Assembly: GCA_965267575.1 (NCBI GenBank)
Contig: OZ254086.1
Coordinates: 1,440,001 to 1,504,000, forward strand
Direction of reading: 5' to 3'
DNA length: 64,000 nt
Source: Calditrichales bacterium
Lineage (GTDB): Bacteria; Calditrichota; Calditrichia; Calditrichales; J004
Below the pieces are notes generated by a model that ran no database searches, was not told the origin of the DNA, and saw only the letters and a program-made list of their open reading frames with translations. Positions 55,853 to 64,000 of the stretch are shown here, piece after piece (within the stretch, counting starts at the first letter, position 1; each line of letters opens with the position of its first letter). The position numbers and the translations under genes were made by a program.

Positions 55853-55955
55853 TGTGTTACCTCCGTTGGATTAAGAAAATTGCGTGCAGTATCTTTTTTT
55901 AATTAGCTTCGTAGGTGCACTTGATATCCCGGACTTTTGCAGGAGTTGGACGGTT

Positions 55956-58394
55956 ATGGCCAAAGATATTCGCGTACGTATTCTCATATATTTTCTCCTC
56001 GCCATCGCATCATTGTTTATGGGCTTCAGACTGGATAACAAAACATCTCCGGACCTGGCCCTCGTCCCAAAAATTGACCGCCAGCAGGCCATCGAAACGG
56101 CCAGGGCTTTTCTGGATCGTTATGGCTTTGCGTATGAAAACTTTAGCGAATACGCCTTTTATAAATTCGATAACAGCGGCTCCAATTATATCATTTCTCG
56201 GCGCGGCATCGAAGGTTTCCGCGCGCTGGTTGAGGCTGATAGCATTCCCTTCAGCCAATGGAGCGTCGAATATTATAAAAATGTCCCAAAAAACAAAGAA
56301 GAAGAATTATTTATGGTTCTTGTTTCTGCCACGGGACATCTTAACGGATTTATGCACCGTTTACCGGATTCCACGTCAATGCTGTCGGCCAGTGAAGAAG
56401 AAGCACTGCAAAAAGCCAACGCCTTTCTGGAAAAGTGGCCGGGCATAGACGCGACGCAATTTACCCGCGACCGCGTAAACTCTCAGAATTTCAGCCGTAG
56501 CCATTACGATGTGGTTTATGTGCGCAGCGGTCCGAAACTGGCCGCCGGCGAGGAGAAAATATTTATAACCGTTTCCGGTGATCGTGTCACCTCTTTTCGC
56601 CACATTTTTTCAGAACCGCAAAGTGCCAATGTGGGCGCGGTTGAAGGTCCCAACCTGCTTTTTAATGCGCTCTCCATCTTAGCCTATTTGATTGTCAGTA
56701 TCCTGGCGCTGGTTCTGTTTCTCAAGCGCTATCACGAAGGTGAAATCGGCGTAAGCACCGCGCTTTGGGCAGGCCTGATTGTTTATGTGGCGTTGATCGT
56801 AATGGTCATATTGCTGTGGGATGGCTGGGCAGATGGTGTCGGATTTGGAACCGTGAGCCGCATCTATACAAAATGGATCCTGCTGGGCGTGCAGATGATT
56901 ATTTCCTATGTCTACCTTTTCGTCAATAGTTTTACAGCCTGGGCCGTTGGCGATTATGAAATCCGTAAAAGCGGCCGCAATTTGCTGGGTGGTCTGGACA
57001 GCATTCTCAACAGGGCGTTTTTTACAAAAAACGTTGGTCGTGAAGTGCCCGTTGGCATTGCCATGGGCAGCGTGGTCTTTGGCCTGACGGTCGTGGTTAA
57101 TTTTCTCATCATTACGTTTACCGGCGGCTACAGCGAGGTTTACGGGGAAAATACACGCCATCTGAATTATTCCTTTCCGCTTGCCGGCGTATTCTTCTCC
57201 ATGCTTTTTTACGCGCTGTACGAGGAGATCATTTTCCGCAAGTTTTTTGTTACCTACATGCGGAACATTACATCTTCGTGGTTCTGGGGCATTTTTATTT
57301 CGGCCGGAGCCTATGCCCTGTTCAATATTTTCTTTTCGTCGTTTTTCCAGTTCTGGCCACGCTACTACGCGCTGATTCCCTACTTTACCATAGGGCTGGT
57401 TCAGGGCTACGTTTTTTGGCGCTACGGTCTGCTGGCTTCAATGACTTCGGGCATGTTTTTTGTCAGCATGGATATTGTGCGCTACTGGCTGGAAAGCGGT
57501 AACCCCGCGTACACTGTGCCCGCCTACATTACCGTGGTTTTTTGGATTGCCGTAACGCTCGTGTCGCTATATAGCCTTGTAAAAGGGCGCTACTTCCAGT
57601 ATTCGCGCTCCAGCGAACCGCTGCATATCAAGCGCATTAAGGAACGTACCCGCATGCAGAAGGAGTTGGAAATAGCCCGCAGGGTGCAGCTTGGCCTGCT
57701 GCCCAAGGAAAGACCGGCCATGGAAGGTTTTGACGTCGCCGGAATTTGTGTGCCGGCAAATGAAGTGGGCGGCGACTATTTTGATTTTATTCAACTTCAG
57801 GACGGCAAGCTGGGACTGGCCATCGCCGACGTTTCCGGTAAGGGCGTTCCGGCGGCGATATACATGACGCTTACCAAGGGCATTTTGCAGTCGCACGCCG
57901 AATCCGATCTTTCACCCAAAACGGTTCTCAGCAAGGTAAACAGCCTGATGTACCGCACCATTGAGCGCTCCTGGTTTGTGAGCATGTTCTACGCCGTGCT
58001 CGATCCGCAAACCCGCAAGATGCGCTTTGCCCGTGCCGGTCACAATCCTGCTTTTGTTATAAACCAGAACAGGGAAAAACCGCAACTGCTGCAAACAGCG
58101 GGCATCGGTCTTGGCCTGGAAATGGGCGAGATCTTTAACCGCACCCTGGCCGAAGGCGAGCTGCAGCTCAGCCCCGGTGATACGCTGGTTTTTTACACGG
58201 ACGGTTTCACTGAGGCAATCGATGAACAGGGTAAGGAATATGGCGAGGAACGCTTGCTGGACTTTATCCAGGCTAACGACAATGGTGGCGGCGCGGCCGG
58301 TATACTCGAAAAAACCGTAAATGAAATCAGACTGTTTTGCGGAAATGCCGAGCAGCACGACGATATGACCATGGTGGTACTTAAAGTGTTATGA
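55956..58394 (+). CDS. Membrane protein: periplasmic domain, CPBP/CAAX-like membrane domain, C-terminal PP2C (SpoIIE/RsbU) phosphatase
   Basis: YEEIIFRK; EVGGDYFD, IADVSGKG, YTDG, DDMT; ATG 55956 after AGGAG. Confidence 0.88.
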   Translation: MAKDIRVRILIYFLLAIASLFMGFRLDNKTSPDLALVPKIDRQQAIETARAFLDRYGFAYENFSEYAFYKFDNSGSNYIISRRGIEGFRALVEADSIPFSQWSVEYYKNVPKNKEEELFMVLVSATGHLNGFMHRLPDSTSMLSASEEEALQKANAFLEKWPGIDATQFTRDRVNSQNFSRSHYDVVYVRSGPKLAAGEEKIFITVSGDRVTSFRHIFSEPQSANVGAVEGPNLLFNALSILAYLIVSILALVLFLKRYHEGEIGVSTALWAGLIVYVALIVMVILLWDGWADGVGFGTVSRIYTKWILLGVQMIISYVYLFVNSFTAWAVGDYEIRKSGRNLLGGLDSILNRAFFTKNVGREVPVGIAMGSVVFGLTVVVNFLIITFTGGYSEVYGENTRHLNYSFPLAGVFFSMLFYALYEEIIFRKFFVTYMRNITSSWFWGIFISAGAYALFNIFFSSFFQFWPRYYALIPYFTIGLVQGYVFWRYGLLASMTSGMFFVSMDIVRYWLESGNPAYTVPAYITVVFWIAVTLVSLYSLVKGRYFQYSRSSEPLHIKRIKERTRMQKELEIARRVQLGLLPKERPAMEGFDVAGICVPANEVGGDYFDFIQLQDGKLGLAIADVSGKGVPAAIYMTLTKGILQSHAESDLSPKTVLSKVNSLMYRTIERSWFVSMFYAVLDPQTRKMRFARAGHNPAFVINQNREKPQLLQTAGIGLGLEMGEIFNRTLAEGELQLSPGDTLVFYTDGFTEAIDEQGKEYGEERLLDFIQANDNGGGAAGILEKTVNEIRLFCGNAEQHDDMTMVVLKVL

Positions 58395-58745: not shown

Positions 58746-60812
58746 ATGAAAACGATCCTGTTTATGATTTTGCTTTGCGTGGCCTTTGTTTTGGCCCAGA
58801 ACAGCAGGGAATGGCTGAGTCCGGCTATCGATAATGCTACGACGCAGCTTGTGGAAAAGTATGGTGAGGAGCAGCGCGCCTCCATTGAACGCGGACTGAA
58901 ACAGGTAGCCGATTTCTGGCGTGAGGAAGACGGCAGCGCGGAAGACTACATCGCTTTTGCGTTGCGCCATTACGCCGGGGATCAGGCCACGCGCGACGCT
59001 ATGTTTAATCGTTACCAGTATTTGCTGGAACAGATCGGCGGACACATGAACCAGATGATCCTGGCATTGCGCCGCCAGACGGATGAGGACAGGGGCCCGA
59101 TCTATCCGTTTGATGAACTGTTTGCCGCTTATAATCCGGCAGCCCACGTCAACTCAGACCTTTTTGAGAACAAGCTGGCCTTTATTGTATTGCTCAATTT
59201 TCCCCTGACCACACTGGAAGAGCGGCTGGCAAACGGTGCTGAATGGACCCGCCGGCAATGGGCCGAGGTGCGGCTTGCCCAAGATTTTGGCGTGCGCGTG
59301 CCCTCTTCCGTAAACCAGGCCGTTTCGGCTGCTGCCGCCAGGGCCGATCAGTACATTGCCGGTTACAACATCTGGATGCATCACCTGATTGATAATGACG
59401 GACAGCGCCTTTTTCCGGAAGGACTGCGGCTGCTGTCGCACTGGAACCTGCGCGATGAGATAAAGGCCCAGTACGCCCAGGACGAGCAGGGGCTGGAGCG
59501 CCAGCGCATGATCCGGAAAGTTATGGAGCGGATTGTTGACCAGACAATCCCTGAGGCGGTTATTGACAATCCGCACCTGGATTGGAATCCCTACAGCAAC
59601 ACCGTCAAAAAATCACCCGTTAACGACAGCGACCGTAAAGCTCCCACAGACCTGAAGGCCGATGACAGCCGTGAACCCGATACGCGCTACGATGTATTGC
59701 TGGGCACATATCTGGCTGCCCGCCAGGTCGATGCTTATTCGCCGACCGCGCCGACGCATATTCTGCGCCGTTTTGAGCAGGACCGTGAAATCCCTGAAGA
59801 ACGCGTTCGCAAAATGCTGGAAACGGTTCTGGAGTCGCCGCTTTTTGCGCAGGTCGGGCAGCTTATAGAACAGCGCCTGGGCCGCGAGCTGGAGCCTTTT
59901 GATATCTGGTATAATGGTTTTAAACCACGCGGCAAATACACCGAGCAGGAGCTGGATAAAATTACCCGCGAGCGCTATCCCACGGCGCAGGCATTTCACA
60001 AGGACATTGCCCGCATTCTGACGGGGCTGGATTTTTCCCGGGATAAAGCCGATTACCTTGCCGCCAACATTGAGGTGGATCCCGCACGCGGCTCGGGACA
60101 TGCCTGGGGTCCGCAAATGCGCTCGGCGCCGGCCCACCTGCGCACCCGCGTGGGCAAAGACGGCATGGACTACAAGGGCTATAACATCGCTGTGCACGAG
60201 CTGGGACATAATGTGGAGCAGACCTTTTCCTTAAAGGATTTAGATTATACGCTGCTTGAGGGTGTGCCCAATACCGCTTTCACCGAAGCACTGGCTTTCG
60301 TTTTCCAGAACAAGGATTTGGAATTGCTGGGACTTTCCAGCGATGACCCGCAAGGCGAAGCGCTTAATGCTTTGAATACGTATTGGGGTACCTGTGAGAT
60401 TGGTGCGGTGGCGCTTGTTGATATGGAAGTGTGGCACTGGATGTATGATCACCCGCAGGCCACGCCCGCCGAGTTGCGCCAGGCCACGCTGGACATCTCC
60501 AAAAAGATCTGGAACCGCTATTTTGCGGATGTCTTTGGCAAACGCGATGTGACGTTGCTGGGCATCTATTCGCACATGATCCACTCCTTTCTGTACCTGC
60601 CGGATTACCCGATTGGCCACATGATCGCCCTGCAGATTGAGGAACACATGCGCGAGGCCGGTGAGATCGGACCGGAGTTTGAGCGCATGACCGTGCAGGG
60701 CCGCTTAACGCCGGACCTGTGGATGAAAGGCGCCACCGGAAAACCGGTAGGTCCGGACGCGTTGCTTAGCGCTACGGAAAAGGCCCTAAAGGTTATAAAA
60801 AACGGCAACTAA
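58746..60812 (+). CDS. Secreted gluzincin metallopeptidase (M3/M32-like)
   Basis: Signal peptide; HELGH then NTAFTEALA; YLPDYPIGH. Confidence 0.75.
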   Translation: MKTILFMILLCVAFVLAQNSREWLSPAIDNATTQLVEKYGEEQRASIERGLKQVADFWREEDGSAEDYIAFALRHYAGDQATRDAMFNRYQYLLEQIGGHMNQMILALRRQTDEDRGPIYPFDELFAAYNPAAHVNSDLFENKLAFIVLLNFPLTTLEERLANGAEWTRRQWAEVRLAQDFGVRVPSSVNQAVSAAAARADQYIAGYNIWMHHLIDNDGQRLFPEGLRLLSHWNLRDEIKAQYAQDEQGLERQRMIRKVMERIVDQTIPEAVIDNPHLDWNPYSNTVKKSPVNDSDRKAPTDLKADDSREPDTRYDVLLGTYLAARQVDAYSPTAPTHILRRFEQDREIPEERVRKMLETVLESPLFAQVGQLIEQRLGRELEPFDIWYNGFKPRGKYTEQELDKITRERYPTAQAFHKDIARILTGLDFSRDKADYLAANIEVDPARGSGHAWGPQMRSAPAHLRTRVGKDGMDYKGYNIAVHELGHNVEQTFSLKDLDYTLLEGVPNTAFTEALAFVFQNKDLELLGLSSDDPQGEALNALNTYWGTCEIGAVALVDMEVWHWMYDHPQATPAELRQATLDISKKIWNRYFADVFGKRDVTLLGIYSHMIHSFLYLPDYPIGHMIALQIEEHMREAGEIGPEFERMTVQGRLTPDLWMKGATGKPVGPDALLSATEKALKVIKNGN

Positions 60813-61934: not shown

Positions 61935-62028
61935 CGAAAAAACCACAAACAGTGCCTAATTAAACTATCTCTTTTTGAATACTTTGGTTTGTTATTTCTG
62001 TTTTGAAATTTGGAATTTTGGACTTTTT

Positions 62029-62802
62029 ATGATCCGTAATTTGCTTTTACAATCTCCCGGCCGGGGAGACGTACTGTTTCGCTGGCGCGGAAATGAGGTT
62101 TCGCGGCTGGAGGGTTTCAGCGACGCGGCTTTTGCTTTTGCTATAACCCTGCTGGTGGTTTCACTGGAGGTGCCGCGCGGCTACAATGAGCTTTTGCGCA
62201 CCATGCTTGGCTTTCCCGCTTTCATGATCTCCTTTGCCATAGTGGTGTTTCTGTGGTATTACCACTATCTTTTTTTCCGGCGCTACGGCCTGCAAACGGC
62301 CACAGTCATCGTGCTAAATTCATTGTTGATATTTGTGGTTCTGCTTTATATCTATCCGCTGAAGTTCCTGTTCAACTACCTGATTGGCTTCTTTTTTGAT
62401 GCACATGAAGGCACTCAGAAAATCTTTATTTCCCGTTTGGATGCATCCAACCTGCTGATCATTTATTCGGCCGGTCTCTCGGCAATTTTTTTGATTTACC
62501 TGCTGATGTATCGCTACGCCTACACGCTGCGCGACCAACTAAGACTCAATGATGTAGAGGTGGTGCTTACAAAGGCGGCCGTCGAAACACAGGGTATTTA
62601 TCTCGGTGTTTCACTGGCGTCGATTGTGTTGGCGCTTTTTTCGCCTTTGCTGCCGCTGGCCGGATTCATCTATATTTTATTTTTACCGCTTAAGGCGCTT
62701 CATGGCTATACCGTCGGCAGGCGTATCAAAAAGCTGGATGAATTAAAGGGACTGGATACAAACGTCACCTTCAGAAAAAGGGATATGAAACGTGGCGCTT
62801 AG
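62029..62802 (+). CDS. TMEM175-family (DUF1211) potassium channel-like protein
   Basis: SRLEGFSDAAFAFAITLLV, W..H..FF, LN; ATG 62029. Confidence 0.85.
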   Translation: MIRNLLLQSPGRGDVLFRWRGNEVSRLEGFSDAAFAFAITLLVVSLEVPRGYNELLRTMLGFPAFMISFAIVVFLWYYHYLFFRRYGLQTATVIVLNSLLIFVVLLYIYPLKFLFNYLIGFFFDAHEGTQKIFISRLDASNLLIIYSAGLSAIFLIYLLMYRYAYTLRDQLRLNDVEVVLTKAAVETQGIYLGVSLASIVLALFSPLLPLAGFIYILFLPLKALHGYTVGRRIKKLDELKGLDTNVTFRKRDMKRGA

Positions 62803-64000
62803 ATACAGTAACGAATGGCTGCAAGCCTGGCACGAAGCCATCAACGCCTCACCTGCTTACGAGGCGGCCGCCGCAAAATGGGAATGGCCCGTATTGCTAA
62901 ACGTGGAAGATAAACCCGGCCTGCGCTTTTATCTTGATCTCAAAAAGGGCAAATGCCTGGAAGCAAGGCGCGCCGCCGAGGCCGATACGGTCGGAGACGT
63001 TTACGTCCTGAATGCGCCCAAAGCCGTCTGGGACAGTTTGCTTGATGCGGAGATGGAGCCCATCTCCGCTGTAATGCGCGGCAAGCTTAAACTGGAAAAG
63101 GGCAAGCTGAGCCGTTTGCTGGGGCAGGTAAAAGCGGCGCAGGAGTTGGTGCAATGTGCCCGCGGCCTGGAACATGGCAATGATACAATCCCGGATGCAG
63201 AGGATGACAAGCCGCCCGCAGTCACAAAAGCGCCGCAAAGCGGTTTCCGCTCATTGCAGCCTTTTGAACAGAAATTCCCATTGCGGCTGTACCAGAAAGC
63301 TAAAAAGTTGGGCATATGGAACCCCGCCGACATTGATTTCTCGCAGGACAGGAAGGACTGGCAGCAGCTGAATGAGCTGGAGCGGGAAGTACTGCTGCAT
63401 CTGACGACGCTTTTTCAGGGCGGAGAAGAGGCAGTAACCATGGATATTTTGCCACTGATGTTGTGCGTGGCCCGTGAACGGCGCATCGAGGAAGAGCTGT
63501 ATCTTTCCACATTCCTGTTTGAGGAGGCTAAGCACACTGAATTCTTTCGTCTTTTCCTGGATGAGGTTTGCGGCGAGCAGCCCGACCTTTCGCGCTTTCA
63601 TGATGCCGCTTACAACCGTGTTTTCAGCGAGGCCCTGCCCGCCGCCATGTCCGTTTTACTGCAAGATCCGTCAGCGCAAAACCAGGTAAGGGCGTCGGCT
63701 ACGTATAACATGATCGTTGAAGGTGTGCTGGCGGAAACAGGCTACCAGGCATATTACAGCATGCTGCAACGTAATGATATTATGCCCGGTTTGCGCAGCG
63801 GCATTGCACGGCTAAAGCAGGATGAATCGAGACATATTGGGTATGGGCTCTATTTTATCGCCCGTCATATTGATGAAGACCCTGCCTTGAAAAAGGTTTT
63901 GTTTACTACCATGGATGCGCTTTTTGCGGATGCTGTCGCTGTTATCGAAGCTATTTTCGCGCGTTATGAGGTTATGCCTTTCGGATTGCAAAAAGATGAG
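62792..64000 (+). CDS. SCP2 lipid-binding domain fused to R2-like ligand-binding oxidase (R2lox); runs off the window end; absent from ORF track
   Basis: Manual translation from GTG 62792, 403 codons with no stop: EWLQAWHEAINASPAYEAAAAKWE..PISAVMRGKLKLEKG (SCP2), linker, then WNPADIDFSQD, GGEEAVT, EEAKH, TYNMIVEGVLAETGY, DESRH. Confidence 0.9.
   Translation, partial: MALRYSNEWLQAWHEAINASPAYEAAAAKWEWPVLLNVEDKPGLRFYLDLKKGKCLEARRAAEADTVGDVYVLNAPKAVWDSLLDAEMEPISAVMRGKLKLEKGKLSRLLGQVKAAQELVQCARGLEHGNDTIPDAEDDKPPAVTKAPQSGFRSLQPFEQKFPLRLYQKAKKLGIWNPADIDFSQDRKDWQQLNELEREVLLHLTTLFQGGEEAVTMDILPLMLCVARERRIEEELYLSTFLFEEAKHTEFFRLFLDEVCGEQPDLSRFHDAAYNRVFSEALPAAMSVLLQDPSAQNQVRASATYNMIVEGVLAETGYQAYYSMLQRNDIMPGLRSGIARLKQDESRHIGYGLYFIARHIDEDPALKKVLFTTMDALFADAVAVIEAIFARYEVMPFGLQKDE

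Follow-up and report, generated by a model that had tools for sequence, protein, structure and literature searches.

The window analysed here is a 64,000-nucleotide stretch of the genome of a Calditrichales bacterium (assembly GCA_965267575.1, contig OZ254086.1, positions 1,440,001 to 1,504,000). At its right-hand end lies a gene that joins an SCP2-type lipid-carrier domain to R2lox (a ligand-binding oxidase of the R2-like type), a ferritin-like domain with a dimetal site. The fusion of SCP2 and R2lox in one gene is real. Both domains are intact, the metal ligands and the Val–Tyr pair of the R2lox crosslink are conserved, and elsewhere the same two parts are coupled as neighbouring genes. The fusion has been under long-term selection in several phyla. 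We suggest that the protein is probably a lipid oxidase that has its carrier tethered to it: the SCP2 domain would capture a long-chain aliphatic molecule and the R2lox site would oxidise it.

The fusion gene and its domains

An initial annotation of the window had proposed a frame running from a GTG at 62792 to the window end. Translation of 62792-64000 on the plus strand indeed gives 403 residues without a stop, and no other long plus-strand frame crosses this segment. The source genome is complete, a single contig of 4.73 Mb, and there the frame continues beyond the window. It closes at window coordinate 64081, 81 bases outside, with bases 64001-64081 supplying the final 27 codons and the stop, for a total of 429 residues. 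Alignment shows that the N-terminus agrees with the N-termini of homologues. A stop or frameshift in the linker, which the initial annotation had named as a possible flaw, was looked for and none was found. Logan contigs from three runs of one sample, probably the very sample that is the source of the assembly, have 0 differences to the fusion region. In another study's metagenome, a 30.7-kb contig that is 87% identical over 62700-64000 differs there by 168 substitutions and 0 gaps. The base composition of the gene (GC 0.53, against 0.496 for the genome with a 5-95% range of 0.41-0.56) gives no signal of recent horizontal transfer. A promoter and terminator scan around the fusion returned 3 promoter-like sites where 4.0 are expected, and the sigma-70 consensus may not suit a genome of the Fibrobacteres-Chlorobi-Bacteroidetes (FCB) type.

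The N-terminal part is an SCP2 domain. Pfam SCP2 (PF02036) matches residues 18-102 with 27.5 bits (cut-off 21.3), and the fusion is the sole PF02036 match in the genome. When solved structures are searched by sequence, residues 5-129 match the Thermus SCP2 chains 1wfr (E 8e-18) and 2cx7 (E 3e-17). Thus, the assignment of about 125 N-terminal residues to SCP2, which the initial annotation had left open to failure, holds. The nearest solved relative is TT1886 of Thermus thermophilus (1wfr, 2cx7), which, unlike the fusion, is a stand-alone protein of 130-143 amino acids. An AlphaFold2 (AF2) model of the full protein, made with 120 homologues, has a mean predicted local distance difference test (pLDDT) of 89.4 and a predicted template-modelling score (pTM) of 0.84. 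That pTM seems rather high for a model with only the 280-residue domain in place, a point to which no weight is given. In the model, residues 1-129 are predicted to form five strands and flanking helices (pLDDT ~81-97 per ten-residue block), and Foldseek matches this part to 2cx7_B with a target-normalised template-modelling (TM) score of 0.83 at 38% identity. Residues L50, G53, C55, W80, P90, and G104 are invariant in 120/120 fused homologues. Two of these make up a G-x-C motif (G53, C55; Cys55 codon 62954-62956), which is likewise kept in 6/6 SCP2 genes checked that are separate from R2lox, as well as in a distant stand-alone SCP2 of Anaerolineales. A conserved Cys is unexpected in a passive lipid carrier.

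The acidic, Pro-rich linker that follows is present as first described. In the model, pLDDT falls below 50 only at residues 130-146, which are predicted to be disordered. Across the 120 homologues the segment from A123 to P163 spans 37-57 residues, is rich in Ala, Ser, Thr, Pro, and Gly, and is unconserved. No solved chain spanning both domains is found among the Foldseek matches of the model. Complex prediction of the SCP2 domain against the R2lox domain, both taken from the same alignment, gave a median score of 0.37, with one control at 0.48. The predicted character of the linker suggests tethering rather than a fixed tunnel.

The remainder of the protein is an R2lox domain. Ribonuc_red_sm (PF00268) matches residues 155-390 of the 403-residue part with 78.6 bits (cut-off 33.6) and residues 155-419 of the full protein, and the NCBIfam equivalog NF006202 (cut-off 315 bits), which is named 'R2-like ligand-binding oxidase', gives a score of 344.7. 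That is, in the hidden Markov model (HMM) scan all three models that name the proposed parts, PF02036, PF00268, and NF006202, are above cut-off. The sequence search of solved structures returns R2lox chains at E 2e-58 to 1e-51, among them R2loxI of Geobacillus kaustophilus (GkR2loxI; 4hr0, E 2e-58) and MtR2lox of Mycobacterium tuberculosis (3ee4, E 4e-56). A gapless alignment to 4hr0 equates the six metal ligands E212, E245, H248, E310, E345, and H348 with GkR2loxI E69, E102, H105, E167, E202, and H205, and the crosslink pair V215 and Y305 with V72 and Y162. The motifs concerned lie at residues 210-215, 244-248, 304-311, and 344-348, and all eight positions are invariant in 120/120 fused homologues. 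The initial reading, according to which all six ligands are present in their motifs and the Val of EEAV and the Tyr of TYNM are kept, is therefore borne out residue by residue. The list of ligand and crosslink residues of GkR2loxI is printed in the available text of PMC10867098. The same six ligands and Val/Tyr pair are shared with M. tuberculosis Rv0233 (3ee4), SeR2lox (7qbp), and S. acidocaldarius R2loxI and R2loxII (6qrz, 7qbk), the stretches between these positions being free of indels. The solved stand-alone R2lox chains comprise 316-330 residues, tags included, and have no SCP2, whereas the fusion has 150 extra N-terminal residues. The fusion locus also differs in being without the alcohol dehydrogenase (ADH), aldehyde dehydrogenase (ALDH), and acyl-CoA synthetase neighbourhood of Bacillota-type R2lox.

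It is extremely improbable that the gene is an artefact of assembly or annotation, or that its ferritin-like domain is the R2 or R2c subunit of a ribonucleotide reductase (RNR). The sole hint of either is that some homologues bear the name 'ribonucleoside-diphosphate reductase beta chain'. RNR beta models reach at most 47.5 bits on the fusion, far under their cut-offs of at least 237. Foldseek places the AF2 model with R2lox chains (E 4e-16 to 8e-14, TM 0.85-0.94), the best R2c following at E 1.5e-7 and TM 0.71. The frame is kept in independent contigs, the diverged relative included, and there are hundreds of fused homologues. The genome encodes no class I R2 besides the R2lox domain, the fusion being its sole PF00268 match. 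Its sole PF02867 protein, where an R1 partner would be sought, is a class II (B12-dependent) NrdJ (TIGR02504, 529 bits, cut-off 400), and a genome whose RNR is of this class needs no R2 subunit; a class I R1 is absent from the genome. As far as sequence data show, the artefact and RNR readings are refuted. The nrdJ gene lies outside the window at G000:C1:476363-478864 (-), 1 Mb from the fusion.

Table 1. Features of the fusion gene and of genes discussed with it. Coordinates are those of the window unless the own genome (G000) or another locus (L) is named.
Feature	Coordinates	Strand	Remarks
SCP2-R2lox fusion gene	62792..64000 within window	+	GTG start; 429 amino acids in full
SCP2-type lipid-carrier domain of Thermus TT1886 type, residues 1-129	62792..63178	+	PF02036; PDB 1wfr/2cx7; predicted fold
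Flexible linker (predicted), residues 130 to ~150, acidic and Pro-rich	63179..63241	+	low pLDDT
R2lox ferritin-like domain, residues ~151-429 (window end at residue 403)	63242..64000	+	NF006202; 4hr0; Foldseek
Dimetal-site and crosslink codons	63425..63835	+	alignment to GkR2loxI
Metal-ligand codons (first base)	E212 63425; E245 63524; H248 63533; E310 63719; E345 63824; H348 63833	+	
Crosslink-pair codons (first base)	V215 63434; Y305 63704	+	
Membrane-protein open reading frame, 275 amino acids, TMEM175/DUF1211-like	61975..62802	+	PF06736, 52.8 bits
Class I S-adenosylmethionine-dependent methyltransferase open reading frame, 300 amino acids	61032..61934	+	Pfam Methyltransf_25/11/23
Amidohydrolase genes	G000:C1:1504180-1507236 and 1507233-1508525 (window coordinates 64180-68525; L002 9180-13525)		
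ABC1 kinase genes	L020 8428-10239; L178 4014-5882; L012 7399-9165		

Fused and separate forms

The best 120 matches to the protein in a collection of 5.8 billion proteins are all fused (120/120), with lengths of 422-491 amino acids and 98-100% query coverage. One of them is 88% identical to the query and the others are at most 53% identical. Homologues in Gemmatimonadetes, Calditrichota, Balneolaceae, and Rhodothermales carry the database name 'R2-like ligand-binding oxidase', and the JGI name is 'ribonucleotide reductase beta subunit family protein.../putative sterol carrier protein'. In the ESM Atlas, both Pfam families are found in 19/30 of the nearest clusters, and the phylum labels seen most often there are Gemmatimonadota and Actinomycetota. 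The fused architecture is plentiful and already auto-annotated (NCBI, JGI); it is neither unique nor unannotated. The novelty implied by the initial annotation was overrated, as the architecture fills many database clusters and carries automatic names. The R2lox family and the clustering of SCP and R2lox genes are already published. No paper describing an SCP2-R2lox fusion was found in PMC Creative Commons papers and bioRxiv, a search outside which subscription papers lie.

Genomes and metagenomes contain both the fused and the adjacent form, the survey of which the initial annotation had proposed. Among GTDB species genomes, the best 80 of 278 relatives include 9 fused and 2 adjacent two-gene loci, 67 with R2lox only, 1 with an ADH gene between the parts, and 1 cut by a contig end. 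The best 80 of 564 relatives in metagenomes include 31 fused loci, 4 adjacent ones (of which two are the same as L012 and L036), and 45 with R2lox only, 10 of these 45 having fewer than 500 bases upstream.

The window's phylum is represented in the set by only 86 species genomes. Of relatives sampled from the window genome's own family, order, or class, 0/40 have the fusion gene. A search of the phylum gives matches only in the own genome and in 9/16 genomes of one other family; 8 of those 9 have full-length fused copies at 49-54% identity. The distribution within the phylum is patchy. A quick maximum-likelihood tree built from 110 R2lox domains requires the fused label to change twice, and its starred branches are compatible with a single change. 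The two-gene forms of Thermoactinomycetaceae fall within the Bacillota clade of this tree. Because the tree is unrooted, gain and loss of the fusion are indistinguishable.

The initial annotation had treated the fusion as a Rosetta-stone clue to delivery of a lipid substrate from SCP2 to R2lox. Delivery is putative, but the Rosetta-stone logic is supported by the finding of both parts as neighbouring genes in 4 distinct loci (L012, L099, L108, and L036), and by two cassettes of Melghirimyces profundicolus that contain both. At L012 the SCP2 stop codon TAA is followed by a Shine-Dalgarno-like AAGAGGAGGGG and then by the R2lox ATG, so that the junction reads TAA aagaggaggggatcaacc ATG. At L099 and L108 there is a TGA, a gap of 3 or 24 nucleotides, and an ATG, and at L036 the SCP2 and R2lox genes overlap by 17 nucleotides. 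The separate SCP2 proteins end with a conserved (V/I)E(T/A)xFP tail and are without the long linker. The first Melghirimyces cassette consists of a LuxR/GAF regulator, SCP2, a Zn-ADH, R2lox, an ALDH, and an ABC1 kinase; the second consists of SCP2, R2lox, and an ABC1 kinase. Taken across Thermoactinomycetaceae (L012, L020, L178), Ignavibacteriota (L036), and metagenomes (L099, L108), the two-gene loci have the same SCP2 subtype as the fusion (N-terminal HMM 137-174 bits) and the same R2lox type, with SCP2 encoded first, as in the fusion. They differ from it in that the polypeptides are separate and in that some add ADH, ALDH, and ABC1 kinase genes.

A gene for an ABC1/UbiB-type atypical kinase immediately follows R2lox in 7 distinct loci (L020, L178, L012, L022, L024, L082, and L070). 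These loci belong to Thermoactinomycetaceae, Alicyclobacillus, and Bacillota, and occur with or without an SCP2 gene.

For haloarchaeal clusters of R2lox with a sterol carrier protein, the primary paper cited is that of Kumar et al. 2020 in Extremophiles. As described in the available text of PMC9314684, the haloarchaeal R2lox clusters with a sterol carrier protein and a ferredoxin and is up-regulated on hexadecane.

Substrate and mode of action

Evidence on the substrate comes from the neighbours of unfused R2lox genes and from the other partners of the SCP2 subtype. Neighbours were counted over 81 loci, 80 from genome contigs and the window's own, each family being named from one example per cluster. 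Unfused Bacillota R2lox genes are accompanied by ALDH (39 loci), Fe-ADH (38), acyl-CoA synthetase (32), acyl-CoA dehydrogenase (25), and a LuxR/GAF regulator (23). This set reproduces the cluster around G. kaustophilus GK2771 as described in the available text of PMC10867098. The same text contains the 2024 claim that GkR2loxI is an alkane monooxygenase, for which the assay reported is the disappearance of 20-60% of the alkane from crude E. coli lysate over 24 h. The statement of the initial annotation that R2lox has no known physiological reaction is thus out of date, weakly evidenced as the claim is. According to the available portion of PMC9314684, R2lox co-purifies with C16/C18 hydroxy fatty acids, and a delivery partner for poorly soluble aliphatics has been hypothesised for it.

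Searched alone against 1.84 billion representatives, the SCP2 domain has 435 relatives at E ≤1e-3 and 118 at E ≤1e-10. Of the best 150 representatives, 128 are at most 200 amino acids long; that is, the subtype mostly consists of stand-alone proteins of ~125-160 residues. The 22 longer representatives (21 scanned for domains, P0024 being already assigned) comprise 8 R2lox fusions, 4 WS/DGAT proteins, 1 Fe-ADH, and 9 proteins without another Pfam domain. The WS/DGAT wax-ester synthases carry SCP2 of the same subtype at the C-terminus (P0224, P0237, and the partial P0186 and P0236), and in P0262 it stands on the N-terminus of the Fe-ADH. Over 275 residues, the latter enzyme shares 41% identity with the Fe-ADH encoded downstream of Bacillota R2lox. 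Like the fusion, these proteins are lipid-handling enzymes carrying this very SCP2 subtype; they differ in their catalytic partners and in that SCP2 is C-terminal in most. The R2lox, Fe-ADH, and WS/DGAT partners act on or near long-chain alcohols, which fits an R2lox that makes or uses such molecules.

Enzymes with an appended SCP2-type domain include eukaryotic SCPx and MFE-2 and the bacterial alkylsulfatase SdsA1, whose domain is Alkyl_sulf_C. Alkyl_sulf_C (PF14864) is found on 17-31% of the members of three ESM Atlas clusters, two of fused SCP2-R2lox proteins and one of SCP2-only proteins.

The combined evidence favours long aliphatic chains as substrate and agrees with the GkR2loxI alkane claim. 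Among substrate classes, we tentatively regard a long aliphatic chain at the alkane/alkanol level as the likeliest. Capture, hand-over, and substrate identity are what we infer, as follows. In a single polypeptide, a flexible linker of ~20-35 residues would tether SCP2 to an R2lox domain that is complete as an Mn/Fe (or Fe/Fe) oxidase. The SCP2 domain would capture a poorly soluble long-chain aliphatic, perhaps an alkane, a fatty acid or fatty alcohol, or some similar lipid, and would hold it at high local concentration beside the hydrophobic channel of R2lox. The O2-activated dimetal site would then carry out a two-electron oxidation, most likely a hydroxylation. A more specific version, which we put forward as a doubtful one, is that TT1886-type SCP2 is a dedicated carrier of long-chain alkanes and alkanols, repeatedly fused to enzymes of one pathway. 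In such a pathway, no less doubtful, R2lox would convert alkane to alkanol, the Fe-ADH would convert alkanol to aldehyde, and the wax-ester synthase would convert alkanol to wax.

A flexible and unconserved linker, which suits tethering over a rigid tunnel, would also be expected if SCP2 were a module for membrane or lipid-droplet targeting, for gating, or for product acceptance, rather than a substrate shuttle. In that case SCP2 would park the oxidase at a hydrophobic surface or remove the oxidised product, and it agrees with such an accessory role that R2lox does without this SCP2 in 6/7 genomes checked. We nevertheless hold this alternative to be unlikely, given that the subtype is mostly stand-alone (the 128/150 above) and is fused to three different lipid enzymes, as a soluble carrier would be. 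No transmembrane or amphipathic anchor came to light, though none was sought.

The substrate might instead be an isoprenoid, that is, a quinone or a polyprenyl intermediate handled in the manner of UbiJ and UbiT with the help of ABC1/UbiB-type kinases. In the available text of PMC9499169, the SCP2 domain of UbiJ is proposed to act on lipid intermediates of the Ubi metabolon, and that of UbiJ/UbiT to hold the lipid substrate for hydroxylases. In favour of this reading, 7 distinct Bacillota loci have an ABC1 gene immediately after R2lox. In contrast, UbiJ and UbiT are unfused proteins that serve different hydroxylases, and no ABC1 gene lies beside any fused R2lox locus, the own genome's ABC1 homologue being 1.4 Mb off. 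The C16/C18 hydroxy fatty acids that, in the source text available, co-purify with solved R2lox proteins, and the Fe-ADH and wax-ester synthase that are the other fusion partners of the SCP2 subtype, likewise speak against an isoprenoid. This reading seems to us quite improbable.

Several findings weigh against a lipid oxidase supplied by its own SCP2 domain. The published alkane-hydroxylase evidence for GkR2loxI is weak: in the available text of PMC10867098, the E202A/H205A mutant is only 11-21% less active, and the results section on GkR2loxI activity, as far as that text goes, mentions no product. A linker that is long, variable, and predicted to be disordered does not imply a fixed continuous tunnel. 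When 7 genomes with an unfused R2lox were searched with a Melghirimyces SCP2 query (positive controls 3/3), 6 had no homologue and 1 had a distant copy elsewhere; SCP2 is therefore not a general requirement for R2lox. At E ≤1e-10, three enzymes are without a homologue in the own genome: the Bacillota-type Fe-ADH, the Zn-ADH of the Melghirimyces R2lox operon, and the SCP2-bearing WS/DGAT. The genome's homologues of ALDH and acyl-CoA synthetase are only distant and lie megabases from the fusion. No redox partner or electron donor was identified. The window's own neighbour families recur beside none of 169 other loci. Fused and adjacent loci have no conserved neighbour, no family being present in more than 4 of 46 distinct loci.

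Neighbouring genes and meaning for the R2lox family

The open reading frame directly upstream of the fusion encodes a TMEM175-like membrane protein. Its stop overlaps the GTG start of the fusion by 11 nucleotides, and on account of this overlap the two are possibly co-transcribed. Its last 92 nucleotides are kept upstream of the fusion in the 87%-identical relative. The TMEM175-like protein is not a conserved partner of the fusion. The methyltransferase reading frame lies on the same strand, 40 nucleotides upstream of the membrane-protein frame; no such frame was found beside the 169 other loci, and any link to the fusion is hypothetical.

Farther upstream, at 55884-58394, a gene encodes an 836-residue membrane protein in which PepSY-like repeats are combined with a CAAX protease domain of Rce1-like type and, at the C-terminus, a SpoIIE/PP2C phosphatase. 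The reading frame after it, at 58746-60812 (688 residues), matches nothing in Pfam or NCBIfam.

Directly downstream of the fusion are two amidohydrolase-family genes with a mutual overlap of 4 nucleotides, encoding 1018 residues (with two amidohydrolase regions) and 430 residues. Amidohydrolase-related dinuclear Mn/Fe oxygenases are described in the available texts of PMC10401708 and PMC13154177. The adjacency is probably a coincidence, because it is absent beside other fused loci.

A fixed context within one lineage is seen at fused loci of the Gemmatimonadota type (L006, L007, L008, and L094). A GntR regulator and an SPFH/Band-7 protein are encoded upstream and a nitronate-monooxygenase-family (PF03060) protein downstream, and at L006 and L008 there is a Zn-ADH on the opposite strand.

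To our knowledge, R2lox has been the object of structural work since 2009, with no agreed substrate. The alkane hydroxylation of 2024, in the available text of PMC10867098, is the sole claim of an R2lox activity and is based on crude-lysate data. The natural fusion puts the proposed delivery partner into one polypeptide with R2lox. Because ADH and wax-ester synthase are further fusion partners of this SCP2 subtype, the search for a substrate is narrowed to long aliphatic chains. If SCP2 is indeed an alkane carrier here, SCP2-R2lox would hydroxylate alkanes or lipids as a soluble, self-contained Mn/Fe enzyme. It would represent an unrecognised, environmentally common class of hydrocarbon-oxidising enzymes, spread widely through Gemmatimonadota, Actinomycetota, and the FCB group, and the long-open question of R2lox function would be settled. 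The value of the fusion is that of a testable lead on R2lox substrates for the whole family, rather than of a peculiarity of one genome.

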